DNA of 63,987 nucleotides, counting the filler, from Sandaracinaceae bacterium (GTDB lineage Bacteria > Myxococcota_A > Polyangia > Polyangiales > JADJQN01), in NCBI GenBank assembly GCA_947483975.1. It is 8 parts of 8 records of this genome, joined end to end, with 100 filler letters (N's around TTAATTAATTAA, not from the genome) between each part and the next. Parts side by side here need not be neighbours in the genome. Positions count along the whole stretch, not along the records: positions 25,583 to 33,936 come from CANKOL010000238.1; 7 more parts are not named here. One strand, 5' to 3'. The first letter of the stretch is position 1; each line of letters begins with the position of its first letter. The notes beneath the pieces are model-generated. The model was not told the DNA's origin. It searched no databases and saw nothing but the letters and a program-made list of their open reading frames with translations. This document shows positions 1 through 59,343 of this stretch, in pieces. Made by a program: the position numbers and the translations under genes.

Positions 1-550
1 GGAACGCGAGCGCGGGCAAGGGCTCCGCGGGGACGAGGTGATGATCGACGACGATGACGTCGAGCCCCTTGGCGCGCGCGGCGGCGATGCGCGGGTGATC
101 GCTCGAGCCGCAATCGCACGTGACGAGGAGCTTCGCGCCAGTGTCGAGCACGCGCGCGAGCGCCTCCTCCGAGAAGCCGTAACCGCCCGAAAAACGGCTC
201 GCGACGAGCGCACACACCTCGCCGCCGAGCGCCTCGAGGACGTCCGCGAGGATCGCTGCGCTCGTCGTCCCGTCGACGTCGTAGTCGCCGAAGATGGCGA
301 TGCGCTCGCCCGCGCGGACGGCGCGCGCGAGGCGATCCGCGGCGAGCGCGCGGTCGAGCATCGCGTCGGGCGGCGTCAGATCCGCGAGCTTCGGCGAGAG
401 AAAATCCCGCGCGCGCGCGACCTGATCCGCGCCCTCCCCAAAGCCGCGATGCAGCAGCACCTGCGCGAGCGCAGGCGAAAGACCGAGGGCCCTTCCGAGC
501 TCACCGGCGGCGAGCGGATCCGCCGTGCGTACGCGCGAGTGAAGCGACAT
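1..550 (-). CDS. recJ: single-stranded DNA exonuclease RecJ (5' part; runs off window start)
   Basis: Manual translation from ATG at 550 (not in the ORF track): MSLHSRVR...IAIFGDYDVDGTTS...GGYGFS...LVTCDCGS...VIVVDHH, the DHH-family RecJ motifs; recJ-secF-secD is a common neighbourhood. Confidence 0.93.
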   Translation of the reverse strand, partial: MSLHSRVRTADPLAAGELGRALGLSPALAQVLLHRGFGEGADQVARARDFLSPKLADLTPPDAMLDRALAADRLARAVRAGERIAIFGDYDVDGTTSAAILADVLEALGGEVCALVASRFSGGYGFSEEALARVLDTGAKLLVTCDCGSSDHPRIAAARAKGLDVIVVDHHLVPAEPLPALAF

Positions 551-554
551 CTGG

Positions 555-3230: not shown

Positions 3231-3370
3231 GTCGCGCGGCATGGTCGCCCAAGAGCGGCGCGCTGCACAGGGGGAAGCGGACGCCCGGGCCCCCAAACGA
3301 GTTCAGGCGACGTCCGAGGGGGCGTCGCCTGAAACCGTCTTGCGAGTTCGAGGGCTGCGGAGCGCTGCGC

Positions 3371-4567
3371 TCAGGCCTTCTTGGCGGCGCCGACGCGTGC
3401 GCCGCGCGCGGGGCGCGCAGGCTTCTCTTCCGCCTGGCGGAAGTAGTGGCGGTCGAGCCACTCGGTCACCGGGGCGGCGACGTAGATCGACGAGTACGTT
3501 CCGATCACGATGCCGATGATCATCGTCTCCGCGAAGTCGCGGATGACGGGCGTGCCCCAGATGAGGAAGCCCAGGACCGACATCGCCGTGACGACCGAGG
3601 TGAGGATCGTGCGCGAGAGCGTCTGGGACGTGCTCACGTTGATGACCTCGACCATCGTCTTGCCGCGGAGGCGCCCGAGGTTCTCACGAATGCGGTCGTA
3701 GACGACGATGGTGTCGTTGACCGAGTAGCCGACGATCGTCAGCAGCGCTGCGACCGACGTCAGCGTGAACTCCTTGCGAAGGAGGATCAGTATGCCGGCG
3801 GTGATGACGGCGTCGTGGAACATCGCGATGACCGCGCCCGGCGCGAAGCGCAGGTCGAAGCGGAACGCGATGTAGACCATGATCAGCGCCATCGCGAAGA
3901 GCAGCGACTTGATGGCGGAGTCACGGAGCTGAGCGCCGGCCTTCGGGCCGACCCACTCGACGCGAAGCGCCGACTCGGGCGCGCGCGCACCGAGCTGCGT
4001 GTGCAAACCCGCGATGACGTCGTCGGCGATACCGACGAGCGCGCACTCGTAGCGATTGGCCGCCTGCGCGCCAAAGCGCACACAGCCGTGCTCGCGCACG
4101 CGCGCGCCAGACTCGACGAGCGCCGTGCGAATCGCCTCTGGGGCAGCGATGTCCGAGAGGCGCAGCGAGATCTTGTCGCCGCCCGGGGAGAACTTCGTCT
4201 CCTGGACGCCAGCGCGACTGCCCTCGAAGCCGCGACGCAGGCGCGTGCGAATGCGCGCCTTGTCAGCGGCGCTGAGCGCGGAGACCTCGCCGATGCGAAC
4301 GATGTATTCGTTCGTGCGCCCTTCGACGCTGACGACCTCACCCGCCGTGTGGCCGATGGTCGTCATCGTGCTCCGGAGCTCAGCCGCGCTCACGTTACCC
4401 GTGAACGCGAGCTGGATCTCCGTGCCGCCCTTGAAGTCGAGGCCCCAGTTGGGCCCCGGAAAGAAGTAGCAGCCGATCGCCAGCGTGAAGGTGATCAGCG
4501 AGGCGGTGACGTTGATGCGCCGCAGGCGCATGAAGTCGAAATAGGCGTTGGGCTTGAAGAACTCCAT
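3371..4567 (-). CDS. secF: protein translocase subunit SecF
   Basis: GLDFKGGT, HDAVIT, GYSVNDTIVVYDRIRE, GTYSSIYVA motifs. Confidence 0.97.
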   Translation of the reverse strand: MEFFKPNAYFDFMRLRRINVTASLITFTLAIGCYFFPGPNWGLDFKGGTEIQLAFTGNVSAAELRSTMTTIGHTAGEVVSVEGRTNEYIVRIGEVSALSAADKARIRTRLRRGFEGSRAGVQETKFSPGGDKISLRLSDIAAPEAIRTALVESGARVREHGCVRFGAQAANRYECALVGIADDVIAGLHTQLGARAPESALRVEWVGPKAGAQLRDSAIKSLLFAMALIMVYIAFRFDLRFAPGAVIAMFHDAVITAGILILLRKEFTLTSVAALLTIVGYSVNDTIVVYDRIRENLGRLRGKTMVEVINVSTSQTLSRTILTSVVTAMSVLGFLIWGTPVIRDFAETMIIGIVIGTYSSIYVAAPVTEWLDRHYFRQAEEKPARPARGARVGAAKKA

Positions 4568-4571
4568 CGTC

Positions 4572-6422
4572 TCACCCGATCCGGAGGTTCTGAACGCGGA
4601 GACCGCGCACGAGCCAGTCGAAAGCGATCCGCGAGCAGAACACGCCCGTGAAGATCGAGAACACGATCCCGATGATCAGCGTGAGCGCGAAACCCTTGAT
4701 GGGGCCCGTGCCGTACTGAAAGAGCACGACGCCCGAGAGGAACGTCGTGAAGTGACCATCGAAGATGGCCTGGAACGCGCGGCTGAAGCCCTGATCGACG
4801 GCGGCGCGTGGAGACTTCCCATTGCGAAGCTCCTCACGAATACGCTCGTTGATCAGCACGTTCGCGTCGACGGCCATACCGACCGTCAGCGCGATGCCGG
4901 CGACTCCCGGCAGCGTCAGCGTACCCTCGAAGAAGGCCAGCGCGGCGAAGATGAAGAGCAGGTTCGCGCTCACCATCACGTCGGCGATCACGCCGCCGAG
5001 CTGGTAGTAGACACCCATGAAGAGCGCCACGAGCAAGATGCTCGCGAGGGCTCCCCACGCTGCCTTGGTGATCGCGTCCTGGCCGAGCGTCGGCCCGATC
5101 AGCTGCTCGTTGCTCGGGCGAATCGGCGCGGGAAGCGCGCCCGCCTTGAGCACGACGACGAGGTCACGAGCCTCGCCCATCACCGACTGGTAGTCGCGCA
5201 TCCCGCCGAGCGTGATCTGCGCGCGACCGCCACCGATGCGCGTCTGAATCACCGGCGCCGACTCGACGCGGTCGTCGAGGACGATGGCGAAGCGGCGCTT
5301 CACGTTCTGTCCGGTGAGGCGCTCGAACACGTCCGCGCCCGCCGCGCCGCGCTTGAACTGCAGCGAAACGTAGGGCTTGTTGGTCTGCGGGTCGTTCGCC
5401 ACGAACGCGTCCTCGATCATCTCACCGCTGACGTCCGCGCGGCTGTAGATGAAGTAGGTGCGCCACGCCTCGACGGCCGGTGTGCGAGCGTTGCGGTTCT
5501 TCGAGCGGCGCGTGTCCTCGCGCTCGAGCTTCCCGAGGGCGAGCGTGCGCCCTTCGGGGAAGCCGTCGGCTGCCTCGAGGGTCGCCACGTACGCGGCGAG
5601 CTTCTCGCGTGCGCCGGTACCCTCGGCGGTGAGGTACTGCACGACCACGGACGGGCGCGACGTGCCAGCGGAGACCTGCTCGCTGCCGCGGGTGATCCCC
5701 TCCGGGAGGTCCGAGAGCCCCCCGACGTAGGTCGAGTCGTCGTCGACGATCTTGAACTCGAGCCGCGCCGTCTGGCTGATGATGCTGCGGATGCGGTTGA
5801 ACGCGCTCTCGTCGGCGCCCGGGATCTCGATGATGATGTCGTTGTCGCGCGAGGTGATGTTCGTCTCGCGGAGTCCGAGTTCGTCGATGCGGTTCGAGAC
5901 GGTCTGCTTCGCCTGCTCGACCGCGAGATCGCGGATGTTCTCGAGGCGGTCGGCGCGCATCTCGAGCGTCACGGTCCGGCCCTCGCGGGCCGTCTCGCGG
6001 ACGTCGGCGAGCTTGTCGATGAACGCCTGATTGACCTTGGCGGCGTCCGCGACGGCGACGAAGGTCACCGCGATGGCGCGGTCACCGACGTTGTGGACGG
6101 TCACCTTCTGGCGGAGCCGGTCGCGCTGCTCGCGCGTGATGGGCTCGTCGCTCGAGCAGACACCGAGCGAGCGGCAGAGCTCGTCCGAGACCTGGTCGGC
6201 CCGACGATCGCGCATGTCGCGGATCGCCTCGTCCACCTCGACCTCGTAGGCGAGCCGGAGCCCGCCGCGGATGTCGAGTCCGGGTGCGATGAGGCCGCTG
6301 AAGTGTTTCTTCACCCAGCGAGGCGCGGGGACCCAGCGGTCCATGCTCGGCCAGAGGGCCAGTGCTGCGAACACGAGGAGTGTCGCGAAGATGCCGAAGC
6401 GGAGATACCAACCCCTGTCCAT
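4572..6422 (-). CDS. secD: protein translocase subunit SecD
   Basis: GLDIRGG, RIDELG, AGALPAP, GPTLG, GMAVDANVLINERIREE, GTGPIKGFA motifs. Confidence 0.97.
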   Translation of the reverse strand: MDRGWYLRFGIFATLLVFAALALWPSMDRWVPAPRWVKKHFSGLIAPGLDIRGGLRLAYEVEVDEAIRDMRDRRADQVSDELCRSLGVCSSDEPITREQRDRLRQKVTVHNVGDRAIAVTFVAVADAAKVNQAFIDKLADVRETAREGRTVTLEMRADRLENIRDLAVEQAKQTVSNRIDELGLRETNITSRDNDIIIEIPGADESAFNRIRSIISQTARLEFKIVDDDSTYVGGLSDLPEGITRGSEQVSAGTSRPSVVVQYLTAEGTGAREKLAAYVATLEAADGFPEGRTLALGKLEREDTRRSKNRNARTPAVEAWRTYFIYSRADVSGEMIEDAFVANDPQTNKPYVSLQFKRGAAGADVFERLTGQNVKRRFAIVLDDRVESAPVIQTRIGGGRAQITLGGMRDYQSVMGEARDLVVVLKAGALPAPIRPSNEQLIGPTLGQDAITKAAWGALASILLVALFMGVYYQLGGVIADVMVSANLLFIFAALAFFEGTLTLPGVAGIALTVGMAVDANVLINERIREELRNGKSPRAAVDQGFSRAFQAIFDGHFTTFLSGVVLFQYGTGPIKGFALTLIIGIVFSIFTGVFCSRIAFDWLVRGLRVQNLRIG

Positions 6423-6512
6423 GCGGTCCTCTCAGAAGATCTCGGGCTCGAGTTCTCGGGTAAGCGATGAGTGTCTTGAGTCGCGCGCGTCGTCGGCCGA
6501 CGCAGCGGAGCG

Positions 6513-6944
6513 CTACCCGTTTTTGGCCTTGTCCGACTTGTCGTCGGACTTCTTTTCCTTGTCCTTCGCCTCGACGGTCACCGGGGCGGTCTCGAGCCCG
6601 GCGATGTGCGAACGGAGCACGTTGATCTTCACGCGGTCGGCGACGATCAGGTTCACGTCGTTGTCCGTGAGTTCCGCGATCTCGCCGCGGATGCCGCTCG
6701 AGGTGCGCACCTTGTCACCGCGCTTGAGGCTCTTGAGCAGAGCGTCGGCCTCACGCTGCTTCTTCTGCTGGGGGCGAATCAGCATGAAATAGAAGACGGC
6801 GAACATCACGGGCAGCAGGATCAGCTGCGACGAGCCGCCCATGCAGCCGGCAGGGCCAGCGGGGCCTCCGCCACCACCACCGCCGCCACCGCCGGTTGCT
6901 TCGGGCTGTAGCCAGGTAAGGAGCTCGACGATCGTCAGCAGCAC
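6513..6944 (-). CDS. yajC: preprotein translocase subunit YajC
   Basis: FYFMLIRPQQKK...LKRGDKVRTSSGIRG; directly upstream of secD; GTG start at 6944 preceded by GAGAGGA. Confidence 0.93.
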   Translation of the reverse strand: MLLTIVELLTWLQPEATGGGGGGGGGGPAGPAGCMGGSSQLILLPVMFAVFYFMLIRPQQKKQREADALLKSLKRGDKVRTSSGIRGEIAELTDNDVNLIVADRVKINVLRSHIAGLETAPVTVEAKDKEKKSDDKSDKAKNG

Positions 6945-7381
6945 GGGGAATCCTCTCGAATCGGGGCCACACCGCCTGGGTGCCAGCGACACGGCGACCG
7001 GTCACTGCGCCGGCGCTCTGCTCCTCCGGATGAGGCGCAGCGAACACCGAAAGCCCCCTGTGGAGCGGGCAGGGCGCGCGTTTCTACTCCGAAGCCCCAC
7101 CTCCGTCAACCGTGGGCCGGGGTTCGGCAATTGGGCGGAGGGCGGGTCGAGGGCGAGAGTGACGAGCTAGCCGGGGCCGCGACGACCCCTCGAGGGCTGC
7201 TCAGGGGGCTGCCTCGCCCCCACCCAGTCTCAGAATCGAGACACCACGCTTCGAGCGGTCCTCGCCCATCTGCAGGTGGTCTCGCCTGCCTCAGCCCCTT
7301 CCCTCGCAGCTTTCGAAACCGCCCCGGCGTGCGCGTCGGCCGTTGACACCGGCTCCCACGACAGGATACGCACCGGGTCCT

Positions 7382-8439
7382 ATGAACCGTATTCTCGGAA
7401 TGACCCTCGCTGTCGCCGTGCTCGCCTTGGCGGGCTGCGACATGGCCGCGTTCGCGGCCGGCTCGACCATCAAGGTCTTCGTACGCGCGGCGCCCGCGAT
7501 CCAGCGCTACCACGACCCGGAGCTCGCCGAAGGGGCGATGCCAGGCTCGATCTCGCAGCTCGAGGGCGTGATGTCGATCAAGCCGGAGGACGCCGACCTC
7601 CGCGCGCTGCTCGGACGCAGCTACGGCTCGTATGGCTACGCGTTCCTCGAGGACCACATGGAGGCCGCGGCGGTCCTCGACGATCAAGCCGAGGTCGAGC
7701 ACTTCCGGTCCCGCGCGTCGATGGCCTACGCGCGCGGCAAGGAAGTCTCGATGGAGATGATGACGATCTGGAACGACGAGGACGGCGGCGCGCAGGGCGC
7801 GTACTCGCGCGGCATCGACTCGTGGAAGCGCTATCTCGCGACGTTCGATGACGCCGACCAAGCGCCGATCCTCTTTTGGTGCGCCTACAACTGGGCGCGC
7901 TACATCGGCGTCAACCGCAATCAGATGAACGCGGTCGCCGACCTCGAATTCGTGCGCGAGCTCTCGAACCGCATCCTCCAGCTCGATCGCAGCTACTACA
8001 ATTACGCGCCCATCGCGCTGCACGCGGGCCTGCTCGCGACGATTCCGGCCGCGGTCGGTGGGCAGCCCGAGGTCGCCAAGACTGAGTTCGAAGAGGCCAT
8101 TCGCCTCACGCAGCGCAAGAACCTGCTCTTCCTCGTCACCGAGGCTCAGCTCGTCGCCGTCGCGCTCCAGGACCGCGCGCTCTACCGGGCGCTGCTGCAG
8201 GAGGTGATCGACGCCGGCGACATCGACCCGGACGGTCGGCTGCCGAACATCCTCGCGCAGCGCCGCGCCGCGCGTTACCTCGGGCGCATCGACGAGTTCT
8301 TCGAGCCGGTCGCTGGTGAGGCGCCCGCCGCGCAGCCGCAGGGCAGCTGCGACGAGCCTGGTGGGAACGAGTCGTTCGAGGACTTCAACCGCCGCTGCAC
8401 CGTGCTCGAAGGCGGCGAGGCGACGGCGCCTACGCCGGA
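7382..8439 (+). CDS. TRAP-associated TPR lipoprotein, TatT (TAtT) family (3' end truncated by gap)
   Basis: Lipobox LALAGC; helical pattern P-E-LA..AMP..I..LE.....P.D..L..L....Y..Y.YAFL typical of TatT components; a fused DctQM gene is on the same contig. Confidence 0.75.
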
Positions 8440-8539
8440 NNNNNNNNNNNNNNNNNNNNNNNNNNNNNNNNNNNNNNNNNNNNTTAATTAATTAANNNNN
8501 NNNNNNNNNNNNNNNNNNNNNNNNNNNNNNNNNNNNNNN
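8440..8539. other. artificial contig-join spacer (N-run, TTAATTAATTAA, N-run); same spacer at 16965-17064, 25483-25582, 33937-34036, 42384-42483, 50821-50920, 59244-59343
   Basis: Identical 100-nt linker with stop codons in all six frames; inter-spacer contig lengths fall monotonically (8425, 8418, 8354, 8347, 8337, 8323). Confidence 0.98.
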
Positions 8540-16964: not shown

Positions 16965-17336
16965 NNNNNNNNNNNNNNNNNNNNNNNNNNNNNNNNNNNN
17001 NNNNNNNNTTAATTAATTAANNNNNNNNNNNNNNNNNNNNNNNNNNNNNNNNNNNNNNNNNNNNCCGCCGGGCCGAGCCAGGTGCGCAGCGCGCCCGCGA
17101 CGCGGGAGCGCCACAGCGAGTGTTGCGCGAACAGCTCCTCTGCGGAGGGATATCCGCGCGTGCTCACGCTCGTGGGCGCGGCGACGGAGCGCGTGTCCTG
17201 CCGGGCGGCGCGCAGCTCGGGAGAGCGAGACTTTCGACGTGTGTTGTTTGGGGCGCTCATGTCTCGAACTCCATTGTTGGGGCGCCGGTCGCGCCGGTCG
17301 CCAGTACCCGTGTGGCATCGACCCATCGAGGATGCT

Positions 17337-25482: not shown

Positions 25483-25695
25483 NNNNNNNNNNNNNNNNNN
25501 NNNNNNNNNNNNNNNNNNNNNNNNNNTTAATTAATTAANNNNNNNNNNNNNNNNNNNNNNNNNNNNNNNNNNNNNNNNNNNNACGAACCAGGCCAATCCC
25601 GACTGGTCGTGCTCGCCGTCCGGGGCGGCCCGCGAAGTCGCGGACCACGGCTGTAGAGGGTTTGGTGAGCGGGTGGTGTTTGCTCTGGGAGCGCG

Positions 25696-26125
25696 CTCAA
25701 GCACCTTCAGCGGATCGAGGGCGGGCAGAACCTCACGCTGCTCTCGCTGGAGCGCATCGCCTGGGCGCCGACCGGCGGCGGGGAGCTTCCTCGCGCGCAT
25801 CGTGGGGGCGGTGCTCGAGCCGAGCTTTCCCGACGGGGCGTGGGCGCTCTTTCGGACGCCCGCGTCGACTCCCCTGCTCGGGCACGTGGTGCTGCTGGCG
25901 CGCGGCGTGGGCGACGACGAGCGCGAGGCGTTCCTGCTGAAGAAGATCACCGCCGTGCGGCGCCTCCGAGGTGGGGGCTACTCCGTGACGCTCGCGTCCT
26001 TCAACCCCGCGTATCCGCCGTTCGACCTGCGCATCGCAGACCTGGCCGACCTGCGCGCCGTCGCCGACGTGGTTGGCCTCGTTGCGCAGAGCCGAGCGGC
26101 GCCGCGCTCGAACCAGACGCACTGA
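25696..26125 (+). pseudogene. degenerate XRE-HTH / S24 peptidase (CI/LexA-like) regulator
   Basis: One frame reads LKHLQRIEGGQNLTLLSLERIAWA (HTH_3 C-terminal half); another reads FLARIVGAVLEPSFPDGAWALFR...LLKK...LASFNPAY (S24-like). The frames do not join. Confidence 0.55.
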
Positions 26126-26211
26126 GAGTCGCCGGCTCTGCCTGGCGCGCGCGCCCCGCGAGCGTGCGACCCGCGCTGTTGGACGAGGCGACGTAGCCGG
26201 GCGCTCCGTGG

Positions 26212-26240
26212 TTGGCGCTCGATTCCCACCCGAGTATGAT
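26212..26240 (+). promoter_or_regulatory. putative sigma70 promoter of the TA operon (leaderless)
   Basis: TTGGCG-17 nt-TATGAT, ATG 6 nt downstream, no SD. Confidence 0.5.
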
Positions 26241-26246
26241 TCGGCG

Positions 26247-26513
26247 ATGCGCAGCCCCGCGAAGAAGCCGCCGGTCCCGCTTGTGCTCGCGTCGACGGTG
26301 ACGAAGCTTTCGGTCAGCGTGCCGGTGCAGCTGGCTGCGGACGTGAAGGCGTACACGGGCGGGCGGGGGCTCTCGGCCTTCGTGGCGCGCGCGTTGACGC
26401 ACGAGCTCGAGCGCGAGCGGCTCGCGGGCTACCTCGGCGAGCTGGATCGGAAGTTCGGGCCGGTGCCGGACGCTCTGCTCGACGAGACGCGGCGGGCATG
26501 GCGGGGGCGCTGA
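26247..26513 (+). CDS. VapB-like antitoxin (ribbon-helix-helix)
   Basis: TKLSVSVP..L..VK.....GLSAFVARAL..ELERERL..YL.ELD..FGPVP; overlaps the downstream PIN gene. Confidence 0.8.
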   Translation: MRSPAKKPPVPLVLASTVTKLSVSVPVQLAADVKAYTGGRGLSAFVARALTHELERERLAGYLGELDRKFGPVPDALLDETRRAWRGR

Positions 26514-26914
26514 TCCTCGACAGCGAGGCGCTGCACGCGCTGGCCTTCGCCGGCGAGCGGGCGGCGCTCGCGCGGCGTGCCCGGGCGGTCTTGCGGGTCG
26601 CGCTCGAGGAGAACGCCCTCGTGCGCGTGCCTGCGCCCGTCCTCGCGGAGGTCGCCCGCGGCCCGCGTCGAAGCGCCGCCGTTCAGCGGGTCGTACATGG
26701 CCGAGGCATCGAGGTCATCGCGCTCGATGCGTCGATGGCGAGAGCCGCCGGCGCGCTGCTCGAGAAAGCACAGCTCTCCTCGGCGCACGCCGTGGACGCG
26801 TTCGTCGTAGCGACCGCCATGGCCTTTGGCAGCGCGGTGATCGCGACCGGCGACCCGCGCGACCTCACGACCCTCGCGGCGGGCCAGCGACGCGTCCGAA
26901 TCCTGGCGCTGTAG
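26498..26914 (+). CDS. PIN-domain toxin (VapC-like)
   Basis: LILDSEAL, VLAEV, VDAFVVATA, TGDPRDL acidic motifs; 138 aa. Confidence 0.9.
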   Translation: MAGALILDSEALHALAFAGERAALARRARAVLRVALEENALVRVPAPVLAEVARGPRRSAAVQRVVHGRGIEVIALDASMARAAGALLEKAQLSSAHAVDAFVVATAMAFGSAVIATGDPRDLTTLAAGQRRVRILAL

Positions 26915-27191
26915 GACGCCCGTTCCCAATCACTATTGGCTCCCTCCTCGACGGTCAGCGCCACCGCCAAGCCACCGTTGAACTCCGTTTCGGGGTCGTC
27001 GCGACCCGCCAGCGGAGAGCGACCTCGGTCGGAACCGCGCGTCGTCCGTTCAACCCCCAAAACATCGAGAAAACGGGCGCGGCGGACTCCTCTCCCCAGC
27101 CCTCTCCTAGCAGGCGAGGGTACCTCGCGCAGCCCGTATGGCGAGGGTGAGGCGCGAGGGTGAGGTACACGCGCGCTTCACTTCTACCCCC

Positions 27192-27218
27192 AGGTGAGGC
27201 GCCTTCGGCGCCTCACCT
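27192..27218 (-). promoter_or_regulatory. perfect hairpin downstream of VR2 (DGR target-recognition hairpin and/or terminator)
   Basis: Minus strand AGGTGAGGCGCC-GAA-GGCGCCTCACCT: 12-bp stem, GAA triloop. Confidence 0.7.
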
Positions 27219-27234
27219 TCAAGACCAAAGACAA

Positions 27235-27263
27235 GTCAAAGGGTCAAAATGTCAAGTAGTCAA
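27235..27263. repeat. 8-nt periodic GTCAA tandem repeat downstream of VR2
   Basis: GTCAA at 27235, 27243, 27251, 27259. Confidence 0.85.
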
Positions 27264-27268
27264 CCCCG

Positions 27269-27379
27269 TCCCTAACGCACGCAGCGCGCGCGGTAGTTGA
27301 GCGTCACGTCGTTGAGGAACGCGGGGCCGACGCTGAAGTGGACGCCCCACCCGTAGGACGGCGAACCGGCAACAGAGGA
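27269..27379 (-). repeat. DGR variable repeat VR2
   Basis: Colinear with TR 29495-29605; 16 mismatches, all at TR adenines (coding strand). Confidence 0.97.
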
Positions 27380-27730
27380 TGACGACCAGAATTCCTCCAC
27401 CGGTGTGCTCGGGAAGTACGCCGTGTCGATCGCCGGAGCCGAGACCGTCTCATCCACGAGCGTCTGCAGCTCGGCGACGGTCGGCAGCCGCCAGCCGCCG
27501 CCGCTCGGCACGGTCAGCGTCGAGCAATACGTGGCGGACGCTGCCTGGCTCTGGGTCGAAGGCGAGAAGCCTTGCTGCCAGACCAGCCCCGTCAGGTTGT
27601 CGCGCACAGTGCCGTCTCCGACGTCGGTGAAGTGCCCCGCCGGCGCGGCGGCGCGCGCGCTCAGCGCGAGCATCCCGTGCGCTCCACAACCCACCACGAC
27701 GAGCACCACCGCCATCCTCCGCTTGTTCAT
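27272..27730 (-). CDS. DGR target protein 2: secreted DUF1566/Lcl-type (CLec fold) protein
   Basis: ATG overlaps the RT stop (ATGA), SD GGAGG; signal peptide; GDGTVRDNLTGLVWQ, WRLPTVAEL, FWSSS, RARCVR; VR2 at the C-terminus. Confidence 0.93.
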   Translation of the reverse strand: MNKRRMAVVLVVVGCGAHGMLALSARAAAPAGHFTDVGDGTVRDNLTGLVWQQGFSPSTQSQAASATYCSTLTVPSGGGWRLPTVAELQTLVDETVSAPAIDTAYFPSTPVEEFWSSSSVAGSPSYGWGVHFSVGPAFLNDVTLNYRARCVR

Positions 27731-29484
27731 GTCTCTGCCTCCGTGTTGGACTTGCTCACGCCGCGGACATCCGTCGGCGTTATTACCCATCTGAGCGTGC
27801 GAACCTTCACTGCGCCCGCCGCGCGGGGCTCTTCGAGCGCTATGCCCACGCGCAGCCCGCGCGCGACCAGCGAAGAGACGAGGCTCGCGGCGCGCCGCCA
27901 AGGGACGCCAGCCACTCGCCGCCGATCAACTCGCACGACCGTCAGCCCGGCGCGCTTGGCTTGGTGCAGCGGCACCTCCGCGAAGCGGCCGACCTTCAAC
28001 ACCAACACCGCACCTCGAAGCCCCTCGCTCAGCGTCCTTTGTTGAGAGACGAGCGACTCGTGTAGTCGCTCACGCCCGAAGCGACGCGTGCATAATCCCG
28101 CGCTGACCGAGACGAGCGCGGCCGCCGCGCCTGCATCCTGTGGGAGACGCTGCGAGAGCCGGTGCGCGTCGGCGTGACAAAAGTGCCCCTCGTAGCTCGC
28201 CCAGCTCGCGCGGACTTGCTCGGCGAGCCTGTGATCGACGAACAGGACCTGCGCGGACCCCCGCACACGACCAAGACCAGGCAGATGAAGCCGAGCGTTT
28301 GGGGCGAGGTCGTCTTGCCGCGCTCTCGCGGCGAAGCGCTGAAGCGCGTGTCGGCAGGCGAGCACGACGCGGCGTCTCGGCAATACGTAGTGAGGGCGGG
28401 TGATGTAGCCGACGAAGTCCACGCCGTCGGAGGCGGGTTTTAAACCCGCCCTCCACGATGAACCCAGGGCAGGTTTGAAACCTGCCACTACATCACGCGA
28501 TGAGCCATCACGGTCGAACACCACGGACAACGACGGACCCGTAGGGGCGGGTTTCAAACCCGCCCGCCTTACAGGGGAAACCTGACTATCACCCTCGGGC
28601 AAAAGGGGAGGCGCGGGCCGAGCGGGAGGCGGATGCACGGCGAGGTGCAAACTCTCTCGCAGAAAGTCCTCGATGCGGCCGCGCCACTCGGCGAGGCGGG
28701 CCGGATCGCGGTGGATGAGGATGAAGTCATCGACATAGCGAACATAGTGCTGGGCGCCGAGGCCGCGCTTGATGAAGAGGTCGAGGGGATGCAGGTAGAC
28801 GTTCGCGAAGAACTGGCTCGTCAGGTTTCCCACGGGGATGCCGAAGCCGGGGCCTTTGCCGCCGAGGCGCTTGTGTGGCGGGATTTTGCGCTGCAGGTGC
28901 TTGGGCGAGAGCTGCCGCGCGCCTTGGGTCGGATCATGCCGGACGACGACCTCGACGAGCTGCGCGACGCTGAGCGCGGAGGGGGCGGGATCGAGCAGCG
29001 GCAGTCCCCTCAAGGACGGTCGGAGGCGCGTCAACAAGATGCTCTTGTCGATGCTCGCGAAGAACGACTTGATGTCGAGCTGAAGCACGTACGCGCGCAC
29101 CTGGCCGTGCCGCGTGCAGGACCAGAGGGCGTCCTGCACGGCGGCCGCGGCGGCGTGCGTGCCCTTGCCTGCACGACACGCGAACGACGAAGGCAAGAAG
29201 CGACGCTCCCAGACAGGCTCGAGCAGGTCATGAAGCAGGTGGTGGACCACGCGATCTCGGTAGGCGGCGACGTGAACTTCTCGGTACTTCGGGCGCTCAG
29301 TAATGAACACCCGAGACGGCTCGGGGACGTAGGTCCCCGAGCGGATGCGCTGGGCGAGGCCAAGCAGCTCCTCGCCTTCCCGCAGGCGAAACGCGATCGC
29401 ATCCGCTCGCCCGCGCTTGCCCCGCGCACAGGAGCGCGCGGCAAGCTCGAGTCGAGACAGCAGCGTCGGCGCTCTCTCGCTCAC
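27727..29484 (-). CDS. DGR reverse transcriptase with C-terminal MutS-I-like extension
   Basis: RDRVVHH, LQLDIKSFFASID, GIPVGNLTSQFFANVYL (DGR-type SQ), YVRYVDD, GVDFVGY, SYEGHFCHAD; directly downstream of TR. Confidence 0.96.
   Translation of the reverse strand: MSERAPTLLSRLELAARSCARGKRGRADAIAFRLREGEELLGLAQRIRSGTYVPEPSRVFITERPKYREVHVAAYRDRVVHHLLHDLLEPVWERRFLPSSFACRAGKGTHAAAAAVQDALWSCTRHGQVRAYVLQLDIKSFFASIDKSILLTRLRPSLRGLPLLDPAPSALSVAQLVEVVVRHDPTQGARQLSPKHLQRKIPPHKRLGGKGPGFGIPVGNLTSQFFANVYLHPLDLFIKRGLGAQHYVRYVDDFILIHRDPARLAEWRGRIEDFLRESLHLAVHPPPARPAPPLLPEGDSQVSPVRRAGLKPAPTGPSLSVVFDRDGSSRDVVAGFKPALGSSWRAGLKPASDGVDFVGYITRPHYVLPRRRVVLACRHALQRFAARARQDDLAPNARLHLPGLGRVRGSAQVLFVDHRLAEQVRASWASYEGHFCHADAHRLSQRLPQDAGAAAALVSVSAGLCTRRFGRERLHESLVSQQRTLSEGLRGAVLVLKVGRFAEVPLHQAKRAGLTVVRVDRRRVAGVPWRRAASLVSSLVARGLRVGIALEEPRAAGAVKVRTLRWVITPTDVRGVSKSNTEAET
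28432..28565. repeat. cluster of three REP-like palindromes inside the RT gene
   Basis: GGCGGGTTT-T-AAACCCGCC (28432-28450), GGCAGGTTT-G-AAACCTGCC (28468-28486), GTAG-GGGCGGGTTT-C-AAACCCGCCC (28541-28565); each has a GTAG/GTGG foot on one strand. Confidence 0.85.
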
Positions 29485-29494
29485 GCTCGCCCCA

Positions 29495-29605
29495 TCCCTA
29501 ACGCACGCAGCGCGCGCGGTTGTTGTTCGTCACGTCGTTGTTGTTCGCGTTGCCGTTGTTGAAGTTGACGTTCCACCCGTTGGACGGCGAACCGGCAACA
29601 GAGGA
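29495..29605 (-). ncRNA. DGR template repeat (TR)
   Basis: Lies between avd and RT; 12 AAC codons (reads SNGWNVNFNNGNANNNDVTNNNRARCVR*); matches both VRs except at adenines (plus one 3-nt insertion in VR1). Confidence 0.97.
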
Positions 29606-29815
29606 CCTCTCGATCGAGCGCTTGCGCTCGGCCGCGGAAGGACTCGACGCGGGCTGCGCGAGGAGACGTCCTTGGCCGACTGCCCTCGTGGGCCGCCGAA
29701 GGGCGCGGCAGGCACGAGAGCGCCTTTGTATGCCTGCGGATGCCCGTCCGCAGGCGGCTCGATCGCACGGGGAGTCTGGCACACCCGAGCTCGAGGACGT
29801 GGGCTTGCGCCTGCG

Positions 29816-30196
29816 TCATCGGCTCGGCTCCGGCCGCTGCTGGTGCAGCTTGTTGTCGTGAGCACGCCACGCTTCCGCCTGCCGCGCGAAATTCACCACC
29901 TGCTCCATGACCTGCGCGTATTGCTGGAACGATGAGAACGCTTGCAGCTCCTTTCCGGTCTGAACGAGGAGCTTCAGCTCCTCTGTGCGGCCACAGAGCC
30001 GCGGGAGCGCCGCCACCCGAGTGGCCTTGGTGTTCGCGCGCTGTACCCACACGAGCGCGTCGAGCGACACCTCGCGCAAGCGCTGACCCAGCGTGTACTT
30101 GTGGTGCCGCGGAAAGACGCGCACGACCCGGTCGATGAGGACGACCGAGTCCATCGCAGCGCGGTAAATGGGGAGGCCTTCGTAGTAGCTGTTCAT
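29816..30196 (-). CDS. avd: DGR accessory variability determinant (Avd, four-helix bundle)
   Basis: 126 aa, LPIY...FPRHHKYTLGQRLR...EELKLL...RQAEAW; canonical position upstream of TR. Confidence 0.9.
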   Translation of the reverse strand: MNSYYEGLPIYRAAMDSVVLIDRVVRVFPRHHKYTLGQRLREVSLDALVWVQRANTKATRVAALPRLCGRTEELKLLVQTGKELQAFSSFQQYAQVMEQVVNFARQAEAWRAHDNKLHQQRPEPSR

Positions 30197-30197
30197 C

Positions 30198-30244
30198 GTC
30201 AGACGTCAGAAAGTTGTCGAAAGGTCAGAAGGTCGAGAAATCAA
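30198..30244. repeat. 8-nt periodic GTC(A/G) repeat between VR1 and avd
   Basis: Units at 30216, 30224, 30232, 30240 (last is ATCAA), plus GTCAGA at 30198 and 30205. Confidence 0.75.
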
Positions 30245-30249
30245 CCCCG

Positions 30250-30363
30250 TCCCTAACGCACGCAGCGCGCGCGGTGGCCGTCCGTCACGACGCTGCCGTT
30301 CGCGTAGCCGTAGTTGAAGGCGACGTACCACCCGAGGGACGGCGAACCGGCAACAGCAGAGGA
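30250..30363 (-). repeat. DGR variable repeat VR1
   Basis: Colinear with TR; 15 mismatches, all at TR adenines, plus one in-frame 3-nt insertion near the 5' boundary. Confidence 0.97.
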
Positions 30364-31590
30364 CGCGCTCCAGAACACCTCTCCCGGCGTCCCCGGAAAC
30401 GCCGTCACGCTGATCGTCGGCCCCGGATACGCCACGGCGTAGTCCACCAGCGTCACCAGTTCGATGCGCGACGGCAGCCGCCAGTCGGTGTAGCCCGCGA
30501 GCGTCAGCCCATCGCAGTACGCCACAGCGCCCGCCTGCGTGTAGGTGCCGGCATCGACAGCGCGCTGCCACTCCAGCCCGGTGACGCAGTCGATCACCGT
30601 CTCTGCGCCCGGTGCGCCGGTGACTTGATAGCTGAACGCGTGCCCGGACGTGCCGGGCATCGGGTACTGCGCCCAGCGCGTGTCGCCGCTGACGCGCGGG
30701 GCGCAGCGCGGTGGAACGCAGCCGACGAGGCCGTCATCGACGGTGCCATCGCAGTCATCATCGAGGCCGTTGCAGAGCTCGGTCGAAGGTGAGCCAGCGA
30801 CGACGCTGCAGGTGAGTGCACTCGCCGTGCAGACCTGCGTGCCGGTGCGCGCGCATGCGCCGACGCCGCTCGTACACGAGGCACCGCTATATACGCCACA
30901 GGCGCCGCAATTCAGCGGGTCGCTGGTGAGATCCGCACATTGCCCAGCACAACGAGTCGTGCCGGAGACGCACTCGCAGGTGCCTGAGACACAGGCCTCC
31001 CGCGTGCCGCATGCGGCGGTGGCGCCCTCATCGACGGTGCCGTCGCAGTCGTCGTCACGACCATTGCAAGCCTCAGCCGCGCCCAAGTAGACGCTCGCGT
31101 TGCTGTCGTCGCAGTCCGTTCCGCCGCAGACGCGCGGGGGATCGCCGTCGCCGTCGCCGTCGAGCGGTTGGTAGACGCAGACGCGGGCCGCAGGGTCGCA
31201 CCGCTCGTTCGTGGTGCAGGCGTTCGTGTCGGCGCAGTCGGGGTCACCCGCGCACGCGGCCCCCGCCACACAGTCATTGATCGGATCACAGCTCTGGCCC
31301 GTCCCGCAGAGCGCGGGCGTCGGGATGTGCCGACACACGCCGGTCGCGACCTCACACGTGTCCGTCGTGCAGTGGACGGCGTCGGCGCACCCTGCGCTGC
31401 TCGTGCAGCCAGGGGGGCCGAGGTCAAACGGCGTCGGACCGAGATCGACGGGCGGCGTGCGATCGGGGCCGCCACAGGCTGCGGTGGCGGCGGCGAGCAC
31501 GCAGATCAGCCGCCAGTACGCGAGCCGTAGCGAGCTGGACGTCATCGCTTCCCCCCATCGGATCCCCGCTACAACACAACCTCTCTTCAT
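30253..31590 (-). CDS. DGR target protein 1: Cys-rich lipoprotein with C-terminal DUF1566/Lcl-type domain
   Basis: Lipobox ATAAC; Cys-rich repeats incl. two CNG.DDDCDG (MopE-like) and DPLNCGACG; TVIDCVTGLEWQ, DWRLPSRIEL, RARCVR; start may be 31545. Confidence 0.93.
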   Translation of the reverse strand: MKRGCVVAGIRWGEAMTSSSLRLAYWRLICVLAAATAACGGPDRTPPVDLGPTPFDLGPPGCTSSAGCADAVHCTTDTCEVATGVCRHIPTPALCGTGQSCDPINDCVAGAACAGDPDCADTNACTTNERCDPAARVCVYQPLDGDGDGDPPRVCGGTDCDDSNASVYLGAAEACNGRDDDCDGTVDEGATAACGTREACVSGTCECVSGTTRCAGQCADLTSDPLNCGACGVYSGASCTSGVGACARTGTQVCTASALTCSVVAGSPSTELCNGLDDDCDGTVDDGLVGCVPPRCAPRVSGDTRWAQYPMPGTSGHAFSYQVTGAPGAETVIDCVTGLEWQRAVDAGTYTQAGAVAYCDGLTLAGYTDWRLPSRIELVTLVDYAVAYPGPTISVTAFPGTPGEVFWSASSAVAGSPSLGWYVAFNYGYANGSVVTDGHRARCVR

Positions 31591-31870
31591 GACTCTCCAT
31601 TTCTTGATCGGAGCTGCTCCGCGAGTTTGTTTTTGTGGTTCGCGTGCCTCTCGACAGCCAGAACACTACCATCCTGCGCGATGGTGCTCAATATGTATCG
31701 GATCCGCGCAGCTGCTCCGCGTCTCCGATCCGCGGGGCGCGGCTCCCAGGAGTCGGAGCGGCTCGTCAGGCTTGCGGCCGTAACCGTTCACGCCCCCCCA
31801 AAGCGTGATCATTCCGCGGGCCTCGAAGTTCACGATCGACAGTCGATCTCGAACGTGATCTACGTTCGTT

Positions 31871-33314
31871 GTGCAGCCCGCCTCCGAGATCGACGAGCTA
31901 CGCGCGATGCTCGCGGACCGCGATGCCACGAGCGCGCTGCAGGCGAAGACCATCGCGTCGCTGACGGCCAAGGTGGAGGCGCTCGAGACGCTGGTGAAGA
32001 GGCTGGCGGAGCAGCTGACGCGGACCTCCACCAACTCGAATCTTCCGCCGTCGAGACGGTCCGGGGGCCTCCTCGACGAACGCCAGCAAGAAGGCGGACA
32101 AGAAGGGTCGCAAGCGCGGCGCGCAGAAGGGGCACGCGGGCTCGCGTCGAGTGATGGTTCCGCCCGAACAGGTCGACGAGTGTGTGGATATGTTCCCGGC
32201 GCGTTGCGACGGCTGTCACGGTTCGCTGCCGAAGACCCCGGACTCGGACCCGAGGCGACAGCAGCACATCGAGCTCTCGCCCTTCGCCCCGCACGTCACG
32301 GAGTTCCGTCGTCACGAGGTGTGCTGCCCGAGCTGCGGTCACTGGACGCGCGCGCACTACGATGACGATGTCATCCCGCGGCACCTTTTTGGTCCGCGCG
32401 TCGCGGCTGTCACGGTGCTGCTGACAGGCGTGTACCACCTGAGCCGGCGCAGTGCCGCGAGCCTCTTGTACGAGATGCTCGGCCTACGCATCTCGACCGG
32501 GAGCATCAGCAACATCGAGCACCGGATGAGCCGTGCGGTGGAGCCGTCTGTGGATGAGGCGTGGAGCGAGGCCCAGGCTGCACCTGTCAAACACACCGAC
32601 GGCACGACGTGGCTTCATGTCGGAGTGATTCTCGCGCTATGGACCATCGCGACGGCAGGCGCGACGGTGTTCAAGATCCTCTCGAACGGTCAGGGCGACA
32701 CCCTCGAGCGTGAGCTGCTGACCTCGACGAAGGGCGTGCTTGTGAGCGACCGCGCATCGGTGCTGAAGTTCTGGGCGATGCACCGGCGTCAGATCTGCTG
32801 GGCCCATTTGCTCCGCAAATTCGTGTCCTTCACCGAGCGTGACGGGCCCACGCGGATTTTGGGGCGCGAGCTGCTCGACTGCACCCGAGTGATCTTCGCC
32901 TATTGGTACGACTTCAAAGAAGGTCGCGTCACGCGCGAGCAACTCGCCGCGCGCATCGCGCCCGTGCGCGTAGATTTCGAGCGCACGCTGCGCCGCGCGG
33001 TCGACGCCAACATCAAGGGCCTGAGCGGGTCGTGCTCGAATCTGTGGGAGCACCGCGAGGCGCTGTGGACCTTTGTGCAAGTCGATGACGTGGAGCCCAC
33101 GAACAACCACGCTGAGCGCGAACTGCGCGCCTTCGTGCTCTGGCGCAAGCGCTCCTTCGGAGCCCAGAGTGACCGTGGCCACCGCTTCGCCGAGCGCCTG
33201 ATGACCATCGCGCACACCGCGCGCAAGCAGGGGCGCGACGTGCTCGCCTTCCTGGTGGCCTGCGCCAGCCGCGCAGAGGACGACGCCGCGCCCTCGCTCT
33301 TCGCGACGGCGTGA
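31871..33314 (+). pseudogene. IS66 transposase TnpC, frameshifted near 32054
   Basis: Coiled coil + STNSNLPPS in one frame; DGPG...GAQKGH, Zn finger, KHTDGT, LVSDR, QICWAHLLRKF, EPTNNHAERELR in another. Confidence 0.85.
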
Positions 33315-33320
33315 CGGCCA

Positions 33321-33725
33321 CTACGCGGCAGCCCGAGCCATTGGGTAATAGCGCATCTGGCTACGCTCCCCGACGCTCCTGATCTGGCCCGTCTTCTTCA
33401 GCCGCGCAGCGGGCCGCTCGAGTCTCTTGGCGCTCAGTCCGAGGCCTGGCGCAAGGACCGCCATAGTCTCGCCCGGCGCGGACTCCACCGCCGAGAACAA
33501 GCGCGCGGCCAGCGCATCGAGCTCTTCCGTCGGCGGCCGCTGAGACGACGCGCGCCGCGCGGGCGCTGCCTTCGACTTCGCATCCTTACGCAGCGGCGAG
33601 CTGGGCCGTGCCTTCGAGAGCGTCCGGCCGAGCGCCTCTCGCAGCTGCGCCTCGTAGGCGGCAAGTTGCTGCTGAATCAGGGCCTCCACCGAGGCCTCCA
33701 GTGCGGTGATGTCGATCGCGGTCAT
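33321..33725 (-). CDS. IS-borne small DNA-binding protein (winged-helix-like)
   Basis: Inside the TIRs, convergent with the transposase; N-terminal helix, basic linker, PGETMAVLA..LGLS..RLERP..RL...GQIRSVGERSQMRYYP. Confidence 0.7.
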   Translation of the reverse strand: MTAIDITALEASVEALIQQQLAAYEAQLREALGRTLSKARPSSPLRKDAKSKAAPARRASSQRPPTEELDALAARLFSAVESAPGETMAVLAPGLGLSAKRLERPAARLKKTGQIRSVGERSQMRYYPMARAAA

Positions 33726-34036
33726 GCGAGTTGAATCGCATCGCCGGCGCCGCCCTGCAAAGGGGGGCGTGAACGGTTACCTCTCCCCAGGGCAATCGCA
33801 TCAAAAACGTCGTGACTCCTGCGCACGAGACTTGAACATGGCCAGTCGTCACGGGGTGGCTGTCAGCACGCGAAGAAGGAAGTCGTCATCCCAGCCGGCG
33901 ATCATGCGTCTTGTCTTCACGCCAACCTTGCTGCCTNNNNNNNNNNNNNNNNNNNNNNNNNNNNNNNNNNNNNNNNNNNNTTAATTAATTAANNNNNNNN
34001 NNNNNNNNNNNNNNNNNNNNNNNNNNNNNNNNNNNN

Positions 34037-42383: not shown

Positions 42384-42483
42384 NNNNNNNNNNNNNNNNN
42401 NNNNNNNNNNNNNNNNNNNNNNNNNNNTTAATTAATTAANNNNNNNNNNNNNNNNNNNNNNNNNNNNNNNNNNNNNNNNNNNN

Positions 42484-50612: not shown

Positions 50613-50920
50613 CGTTCCTCGGTGCCTGGAGCAGCGATTGCCACCTTGAGCCGCGCCGCTGCGGCGGTGCGGCTAGCCTACGCGCCGCGAGCGCTCGTAT
50701 TCGCAAGCGCGACACCTCGCGCGGTCGCCGCCCTGGCGCTGCTCCTCGGCGCCGCGTGCGCAGGCGGCGACAGCGCGCCGACGATTCCCGTGGTGAGCGA
50801 GCCGCCGCCCGTCACGCCGANNNNNNNNNNNNNNNNNNNNNNNNNNNNNNNNNNNNNNNNNNNNTTAATTAATTAANNNNNNNNNNNNNNNNNNNNNNNN
50901 NNNNNNNNNNNNNNNNNNNN

Positions 50921-59243: not shown

Positions 59244-59343
59244 NNNNNNNNNNNNNNNNNNNNNNNNNNNNNNNNNNNNNNNNNNNNTTAATTAATTAAN
59301 NNNNNNNNNNNNNNNNNNNNNNNNNNNNNNNNNNNNNNNNNNN

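Follow-up and report, generated by a model that had tools for sequence, protein, structure and literature searches.

A two-target diversity-generating retroelement with lectin-fold targets on a contig of a Sandaracinaceae genome

A complete diversity-generating retroelement (DGR) with two target genes is present in a metagenome-assembled genome (MAG) of a Sandaracinaceae bacterium (GCA_947483975.1; 5.29 Mb, 524 contigs, 81% complete). The contig that carries it (CANKOL010000238.1, C238 of the MAG; 8354 bp) occupies positions 25583-33936 of the window, the 63,987-nt stretch of joined MAG contigs that was analysed and in which all positions below are given unless a contig is named. On the minus strand lie, in order, target gene 1 (445 aa), avd, the template repeat (TR), the reverse transcriptase (RT) gene and target gene 2 (152 aa), as read from the list of open reading frames (ORFs) and their Pfam matches. 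A DGR-type RT, an Avd-like gene, TR paired with two variable repeats (VR1 and VR2) and lectin-fold targets bear out both the reading of a two-target DGR and the gene order given in an earlier, sequence-only reading of this DNA (the original prediction). Assignment to the DGRs is secure, and it is very probable that this is a chromosomal, non-phage element of avd-TR-RT type, flanked by a target gene on either side and working in the way proposed below.

Template, variable repeats and targets

A repeat search returned three in-register copies at 27235-27384, 29461-29610 and 30216-30365, corresponding to VR2, TR and VR1. The TR copy is non-coding and AAC-rich. Comparison over TR 29601..29495 (107 nt, 28 A; hypergeometric test) gave 15 mismatches in VR1 (7 A>G, 5 A>T, 3 A>C; P = 5.0e-11) and 16 in VR2 (7 A>T, 5 A>C, 4 A>G; P = 7.0e-12), all at TR adenines, reproducing exactly the counts and spectra first reported. 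The codon make-up of TR was likewise as predicted: 12 AAC plus GAC and ACG provide 26 adenines, every one at codon position 1 or 2. All changed codons are non-synonymous (10/10 in VR1 and 11/11 in VR2, 21 in all). Mismatches scattered over non-adenine positions, named in advance as the pattern that would speak against a DGR, were seen in neither VR over the 107 nt. The original prediction had carried TR on to 29605 with no substitution at a non-adenine position; this holds over 29601..29495 but not further, as VR1 has non-adenine differences at TR 29603 and 29602, which form the 5' edge where TR-VR1 homology ends. One further non-adenine difference lies 3' of the stop codon, in the initiation of mutagenic homing (IMH) site, where TR 29494 is T in TR and C in both VRs.

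Searched with TR, the whole MAG yielded the two VRs and, on contig C211, a gene whose two Lcl_C domains both matched; no current remote VR was found elsewhere in this 81% complete MAG. The C211 gene (405 aa, minus strand, 1509-2726 of the extracted C211 stretch) is a paralogue that joins two Lcl_C domains, the first like that of target 1 and the second like that of target 2, without an intervening avd, TR or RT. They show 71-72% identity to TR, and 11 and 17 non-adenine differences plus indels rule them out as current VRs. The C-terminal end of the paralogue has kept an IMH-like block and the four 8-nt units described below. In appearance it is a copy of the two-target arrangement that has been retired or lacks a DGR.

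Lectin-fold targets had been predicted, and both target proteins indeed carry Lcl_C in Pfam (Table 1). The AlphaFold2 (AF2) model of target 2 (predicted local distance difference test, pLDDT, 85.4; folded with 37 sequences) had as its best Foldseek match 8q4e_A, the C-terminal domain of Legionella Lcl (E 4.1e-4), and many C-type lectin-like domains came next; a sequence search against the PDB gave nothing meaningful. The model thus supports identification of target 2 as a C-type-lectin-like Lcl_C domain. Both proteins begin with signal- or lipobox-like sequences, as read by eye, from which we infer that they may be exported. Summed contig depth was very high, with many joints, at 30603-31246, the Cys-rich MopE-motif region of target 1. 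This is because similar repeats occur in many other proteins of the community, and it is not a feature of target 1.

The avd-like gene stands where avd had been predicted. Counting against its assignment, the matches of its product to Pfam bAvd (E 4.6e-8, 34 bits) and NCBIfam DivGenRetAVD (E 4.3e-8, 33 bits) are below the respective cut-offs of 40 and 80 bits, and a PDB sequence search gave only a weak match (2gsc_A, E 0.19). Its length of 126 aa, location between target 1 and TR and pI of 9.99 fit published traits of the family; in the survey of Wu et al. 2018 (PMC5758913), avd genes are described as very poorly conserved, with a mean pI of 9.5.

Table 1. Features of the DGR and of its neighbour on the same contig (window positions)
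Feature	Position	Strand	Evidence or remark
Target gene 1, 445 aa: signal/lipobox-like N-terminus, Cys-rich MopE-type motifs, C-terminal Lcl_C (DUF1566)	30253..31590	-	Pfam Lcl_C E 4.9e-25, Cu-binding_MopE E 9.1e-13
VR1, 3' end of target-1 ORF	30250..30356	-	15/15 mismatches to TR at TR adenines
IMH of VR1, GC-rich, spans stop codon	30245..30274	-	Sequence comparison; C where TR has T
Four tandem 8-nt units after VR1 IMH, YYGAY/YYGAC core	30213..30244	-	Start exactly at end of TR-VR homology
avd-like accessory gene, 126 aa	29816..30196	-	bAvd and DivGenRetAVD, both sub-threshold; calculated pI 9.99
Template repeat and its IMH counterpart, IMH*	29490..29601 (TR 29601..29495, IMH* to 29490)	-	12 AAC codons, 26 in-frame adenines
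DGR reverse transcriptase, 585 aa	27727..29484	-	Best PDB match 8ub7_A; GNLTSQ at aa 219 and YVDD at aa 250 intact
In-frame insertion in RT resembling repetitive extragenic palindromic (REP) elements, aa ~285-345	28452..28632	-	19-nt palindromes at 28546-28564, 28468-28486, 28432-28450
MutS domain-I-like C-terminal domain of RT, aa ~483-571	27772..28038	-	Pfam MutS_I sub-threshold; AF2 and Foldseek; F-A-E where family has F-Y-E
Target gene 2, 152 aa: signal peptide and single Lcl_C	27272..27730	-	Pfam Lcl_C E 8.5e-27; ATG overlaps RT stop
VR2, target 2	27269..27375	-	16/16 mismatches to TR at TR adenines
IMH of VR2	27264..27293	-	Sequence comparison
Four tandem 8-nt units after VR2 IMH, TTGAC core	27232..27263	-	Directly after IMH
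GC-rich inverted repeat, 11-bp stem, GAA loop	27193..27217	-	46 nt after VR2 IMH
IS66-family transposase (context, outside DGR)	32151..33314	+	NCBIfam transpos_IS66 E 1.2e-75; Pfam DDE_Tnp_IS66; adjoins DGR

The reverse transcriptase, its added domain and its insertion

The RT is of DGR type. Its best solved relative is 8ub7_A, a 328-aa protein (E 1.6e-30), while group II intron and retron RTs matched at E 1e-8 or worse in the same PDB search (best group II RT 1.8e-8); in that search there was no sign of the grouping with these classes that had been named as contrary evidence. The database entry for 8ub7_A reads only 'Reverse transcriptase', and we take it to be the BPP-1 enzyme. The GNLTSQ motif, diagnostic for DGR RTs, is intact.

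Relatives of the RT lie in loci with the same hallmark. The loci compared were the best-scoring of a genomic and of a viral collection, not random samples, and were scanned for pairs of repeats, 50-400 nt long, that differ at 5 or more positions and in which A of one copy accounts for 80% or more of the mismatches. Such a pair was present in 70/89 genomic loci and 72/80 viral-contig loci, with the end of the template copy usually a short way upstream of the RT. Among 87 genomic relatives, 37 loci had one VR, 29 had two, three had three and in 18 none was detected; many of the 32 loci with at least two VRs share the target-avd-TR-RT-target layout. No second DGR RT was found in the 81% complete MAG, where the only other RT match was weak (C37, 32% over 134 aa). 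The element is a DGR of known kind, since Lcl_C targets and two-target cassettes are both common: according to Wu et al. 2018 (PMC5758913), DUF1566/Lcl_C targets make up 14% of DGRs, with Legionella as an example, and multi-target cassettes about 15%.

Beyond the RT proper, the C-terminus has the fold of MutS domain I, as supported by modelling. An AF2 model of this domain (pLDDT 84.6; folded with the C-termini of 22 relatives) had a best Foldseek match of E 5.4e-5 and 38 matches at E <= 0.001; the listed chains were all MutS/MSH, overlapping with TMq ~0.55 over ~110 residues. What speaks against the identification is the sequence match, which is below threshold in Pfam (MutS_I, E 0.0024, 18.5 bits; cut-off 20.6) and also in NCBIfam. 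In an alignment of relatives a Gly and a Glu are invariant or nearly so, and most members have F/Y-Y-E where the present RT has F-A-E. Going by the fold match, this column may correspond to the mismatch-contacting Phe-x-Glu of MutS.

A hidden Markov model (HMM) of the domain matched in 41/87 genomic relatives' loci, 36 of these in an ORF of at least 400 aa, and in 0/80 viral relatives' loci, which suggests that the MutS domain-I-like module is a feature of cellular DGRs in this RT clade. Many RT relatives among the database matches carry both PF00078 and PF01624, and the RT-MutS_I fusion is common, not rare, in present databases. In the account of Wu et al. 2018 (PMC5758913), a C-terminal MutS_I extension was noted in three RTs and a separate MutS-like gene, MSL, in 16 DGRs including that of Legionella. 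As deletion of host mutS is reported to raise VR mutagenesis 5- to 10-fold in Bacteroides (preprint 10.1101/2024.11.15.621889), the role preferred here is that the module may act at the heteroduplex as a competitor of host MutS.

Between RT motifs 6 and 7 there is an insertion of ~60 aa through which the frame remains open. It contains three of the seven sites in the MAG of a perfect 19-nt palindrome family (GGCRGGTTT-N-AAACCYGCC). The other four are at C192:3274-3292, C330:3457-3475 and C375:1287-1341; that on C330 comes after what may be a stop codon, as a REP or terminator hairpin would. One protein in the database, 94% identical to the RT, has one more 38-aa unit, making an insertion of 98 aa, and a 114-nt duplication joint matching this extra unit was present in contigs of 3 runs. 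To judge from these sequences, the insertion is an in-frame element resembling REP elements or MITEs (miniature inverted-repeat transposable elements), and its copy number is variable. In both forms the RT frame is open and the catalytic motifs are all intact.

Eight-nucleotide repeats downstream of the variable repeats

Both VRs end at the stop codon of their target within a 30-nt GC-rich block, which is shared with TR apart from the single T/C difference and directly after which homology ends. Four tandem 8-nt units then follow each IMH (Table 1), and none is present in the TR flank. A GC-rich inverted repeat is present after VR2 but there is none between VR1 and the start of avd. According to Wu et al. 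2018 (PMC5758913), such inverted repeats follow the VR in 34% of DGRs.

The units are not peculiar to this element. The VR of its closest relative is followed by the same 8-nt units, and in relatives further off the units are AT-rich and have TTGR as their core. Among the genomic relatives, two or more in-phase TTGR cores at period 8 occurred in 39/103 VR flanks, compared with 1/103 TR flanks and 35/2060 random pieces, and mean self-match at period 8 was 0.54 in VR flanks against 0.36 in TR flanks. Neighbouring periods were much weaker, save for a smaller in-phase rise at period 9 (22/103). In the independent viral set, in-phase cores were found in 19/136 VR flanks against 5/136 TR flanks, and period-8 self-match was 0.52 against 0.31. 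No description of periodic direct repeats after VRs was found in the literature searched, which is not proof that there is none.

Within the MAG, the exact four-unit array occurs only after VR2 and after the VR-like end of the C211 paralogue; that after VR1 has one mismatch. At one mismatch the pattern has 6 sites in the MAG, three of which (one on C163 and two on C285) were rejected as unrelated tandem repeats without an IMH. As a point against giving the array weight, a reversed control also has 6 sites, so the argument rests on position and not on rarity. A link between arrays and the MutS_I domain was likewise not upheld: at a strict threshold arrays were found in 7/31 loci with the domain and 3/37 without it, and they also occur in viral loci that lack it. 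It is a tentative and somewhat doubtful proposal that in a large DGR clade the 8-nt units determine the recipient site, a function not described before, taking over the role of the BPP-1 hairpin, and that cellular members have in addition recruited MutS_I to deal with the heteroduplex.

Mechanism, alternatives and known systems

On the model of BPP-1 and Legionella, the TR region would be transcribed, and RT and the Avd-like protein would copy TR RNA to cDNA, placing bases at random wherever one of the 26 in-frame adenines of TR is read. In either target gene this cDNA would then take the place of the homologous VR at the 3' end, the GC-rich IMH setting the 3' limit, so that up to 14 codons could be recoded on the ligand-binding face of the Lcl_C domain in two putatively exported proteins. 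The MutS_I-like C-terminus of the RT may act on the mismatched cDNA:VR heteroduplex, most plausibly shielding it from host mismatch repair. Finally, the four 8-nt units 3' of each IMH, being absent from TR, might mark the recipient DNA and replace or supplement a hairpin of the BPP-1 type.

That the element has been recently active, as originally predicted, is supported in part. Two VRs without a single non-adenine change over 107 nt speak for recent homing, on the evidence of these repeats, but the insertion in the RT and the lack of VR variants in contigs do not point the same way. An unlikely alternative is that the element is a freshly disabled relic, in which a REP/MITE-like palindromic element landed in the RT and the adenine-only pattern predates the insertion. 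Several findings weigh against current function. The insertion is particular to the present RT, being absent from 12/13 aligned relatives and from the two nearest genomic RTs, and its place between conserved motifs means that it may impair the enzyme. Its palindrome recurs at four further places in the genome and so has the behaviour of mobile or repeated DNA; the form with one more 114-nt unit indicates that the insert is unstable; and MITE-like repeats are described as degrading DGR parts in Thiohalocapsa (PMC10907252). The VRs, moreover, are identical wherever seen. Activity was checked in assembled contigs, which drop rare variants, and in the protein database: no differing letters were listed in either VR, VR1 was identical in one other sample's contig, and the protein database has one sequence for each target, from 3 contigs, which is weak evidence. 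VR2 had no coverage in three of the runs and VR1 none in one, and nothing is drawn from these gaps. Against a relic stand the open frame in both forms of the insertion, itself weak evidence in 70% GC DNA, the intact catalytic motifs and the zero non-adenine substitutions in two VRs, because of which any inactivation must be very recent. We therefore lean, with some reserve, towards a DGR that is functional now.

It is much less probable that the DGR is part of a prophage, or of some other mobile element, and that its targets are receptor-binding proteins of that element rather than host surface proteins. Such an origin would suit a contig of 8.35 kb that ends in an IS66 transposase and a PIN-domain gene, the patchy occurrence of this RT type (6/300 other genomes of the host order and 0/3 other genomes of the family) and the many RT relatives on viral contigs, at 32-44% identity. 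The targets, however, start with signal- or lipobox-like peptides (by eye) and are not phage-tail modules, the MutS_I-like domain is confined to genomic relatives' loci (41/87, against 0/80 viral), and the nearest RT and target relatives are on MAG contigs with Myxococcota source names, for example Minicystis, Myxococcaceae, Polyangiaceae and Sandaracinaceae. These names also fit the myxobacterium-like host that had been suggested. None of the flanking ORFs scanned against Pfam and NCBIfam matched a phage family, in keeping with the original claim that the contig has no phage genes; that absence says little because the contig is only 8.35 kb long and the window consists of joined MAG contigs. 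As to the element not being a DGR at all, its RT would be that of a group II intron, a retron or a defence system and the repeats would be paralogous gene ends differing by chance. In NCBIfam the top model for the RT is indeed group II intron RT/maturase, at 97 bits far below its cut-off of 300, with weak Drt and retron matches too, and that scan returned no DGR RT model. The adenine-only pattern (P ~1e-11 per VR), the non-coding, AAC-rich copy among the three repeats, the 328-aa best solved relative and the A-biased TR/VR pairs of the relatives are all contrary to this, and Rfam gave zero matches on the DGR contig at E <= 1, so no group II intron or retron RNA was found there. For practical purposes this last alternative is refuted.

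The DGR is flanked on its contig by the IS66 transposase on one side and the PIN-domain gene on the other. The transposase appears to be in two frames (N-terminal coiled-coil at 31871-32365, DDE part at 32151-33314, plus strand), and this split may be a frameshift or a pseudogene. At 25673-26914 (plus strand) a sub-threshold S24-peptidase-like fragment precedes a small ORF that overlaps the PIN-domain gene; the small ORF and PIN-domain gene, at the contig edge, look like a VapBC-type toxin-antitoxin pair. Over 26900-31900, a sigma-70 promoter scan gave 0 sites, and the count of terminator-like sites was no higher than in shuffles. The parts of the window are separate MAG contigs of ~8.4 kb each (1-8439 is C235), joined by linkers of 44 N, 12 bases and 44 N at 8440-8539, 16965-17064, 25483-25582, 33937-34036, 42384-42483, 50821-50920 and 59244-59343, and gene neighbourhoods are not valid across these.

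The element is a clean, complete cellular DGR in Myxococcota, in an order where its RT type is rare, and the recognition of prey, kin or surfaces could be the role of its two putatively exported lectin-fold targets. The side observations on the arrays and MutS_I matter more than the element itself, because the route of DGR cDNA into target DNA is still unsettled. The 8-nt array is a candidate for target-site recognition in the two-thirds of DGRs without a hairpin of the BPP-1 type. Restriction of MutS_I to cellular relatives' loci, together with suppression of DGR output by host MutS, suggests a built-in escape from mismatch repair. If the units do mark recipient DNA, the locus offers three natural test substrates, namely two VRs with arrays and the array-keeping paralogue.

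Among known systems, the DGR of Legionella pneumophila (LdtA; category 'd' with CLec2 VRs in Wu et al. 2018) is alike in several respects. As described in the literature (PMC5758913), it too is a cellular DGR with avd, has a DUF1566/Lcl_C-type target, an exported or lipoprotein-like protein that carries the VR at its C-terminus, and includes a MutS domain-I-like module. In addition, the Legionella Lcl C-terminal domain is the best structural match of the present target 2. In Legionella, by the published description, the MutS-like module is a separate MSL gene, whereas here it is fused to the C-terminus of the RT. The present element also differs from the Legionella system, likened to it by that description, in having two targets, one on each side, a VR1 that lacks a GC-rich inverted repeat, 8-nt units after both VRs and a REP-like insertion in the RT. 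The RTs with a MutS_I extension described by Wu et al. 2018 are similar in having ~130 aa after the thumb with weak MutS_I similarity, to which fold support is added here; compared with the three noted there, the domain is now seen in an ORF of at least 400 aa at 36/87 genomic loci.

The DGR of Bordetella phage BPP-1 (mtd-avd-TR-brt) shares the core order avd-TR-RT, adenine-specific differences, an AAC-rich TR, a GC-rich IMH differing from IMH* and a target with a C-type lectin-like fold. In contrast to the present element, that of BPP-1 belongs to a phage and has one target, and its RT, of 328 aa, has neither a MutS_I domain nor an insertion. Homing in BPP-1 is reported to need a GC-rich hairpin of 8 bp that has a GRNA loop and is situated 4-34 bp downstream of the VR (PMC3240598); the comparable structure here follows VR2 only, lies 46 nt after the IMH and has a GAA loop. 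The Thiohalocapsa PB-PSB1 DGR loci resemble the present one in that small palindromic repeats are described as invading DGR cassettes (PMC10907252), but whereas the invaded copy there is given as redundant and degrading, the element here is in-frame in an otherwise intact RT gene.

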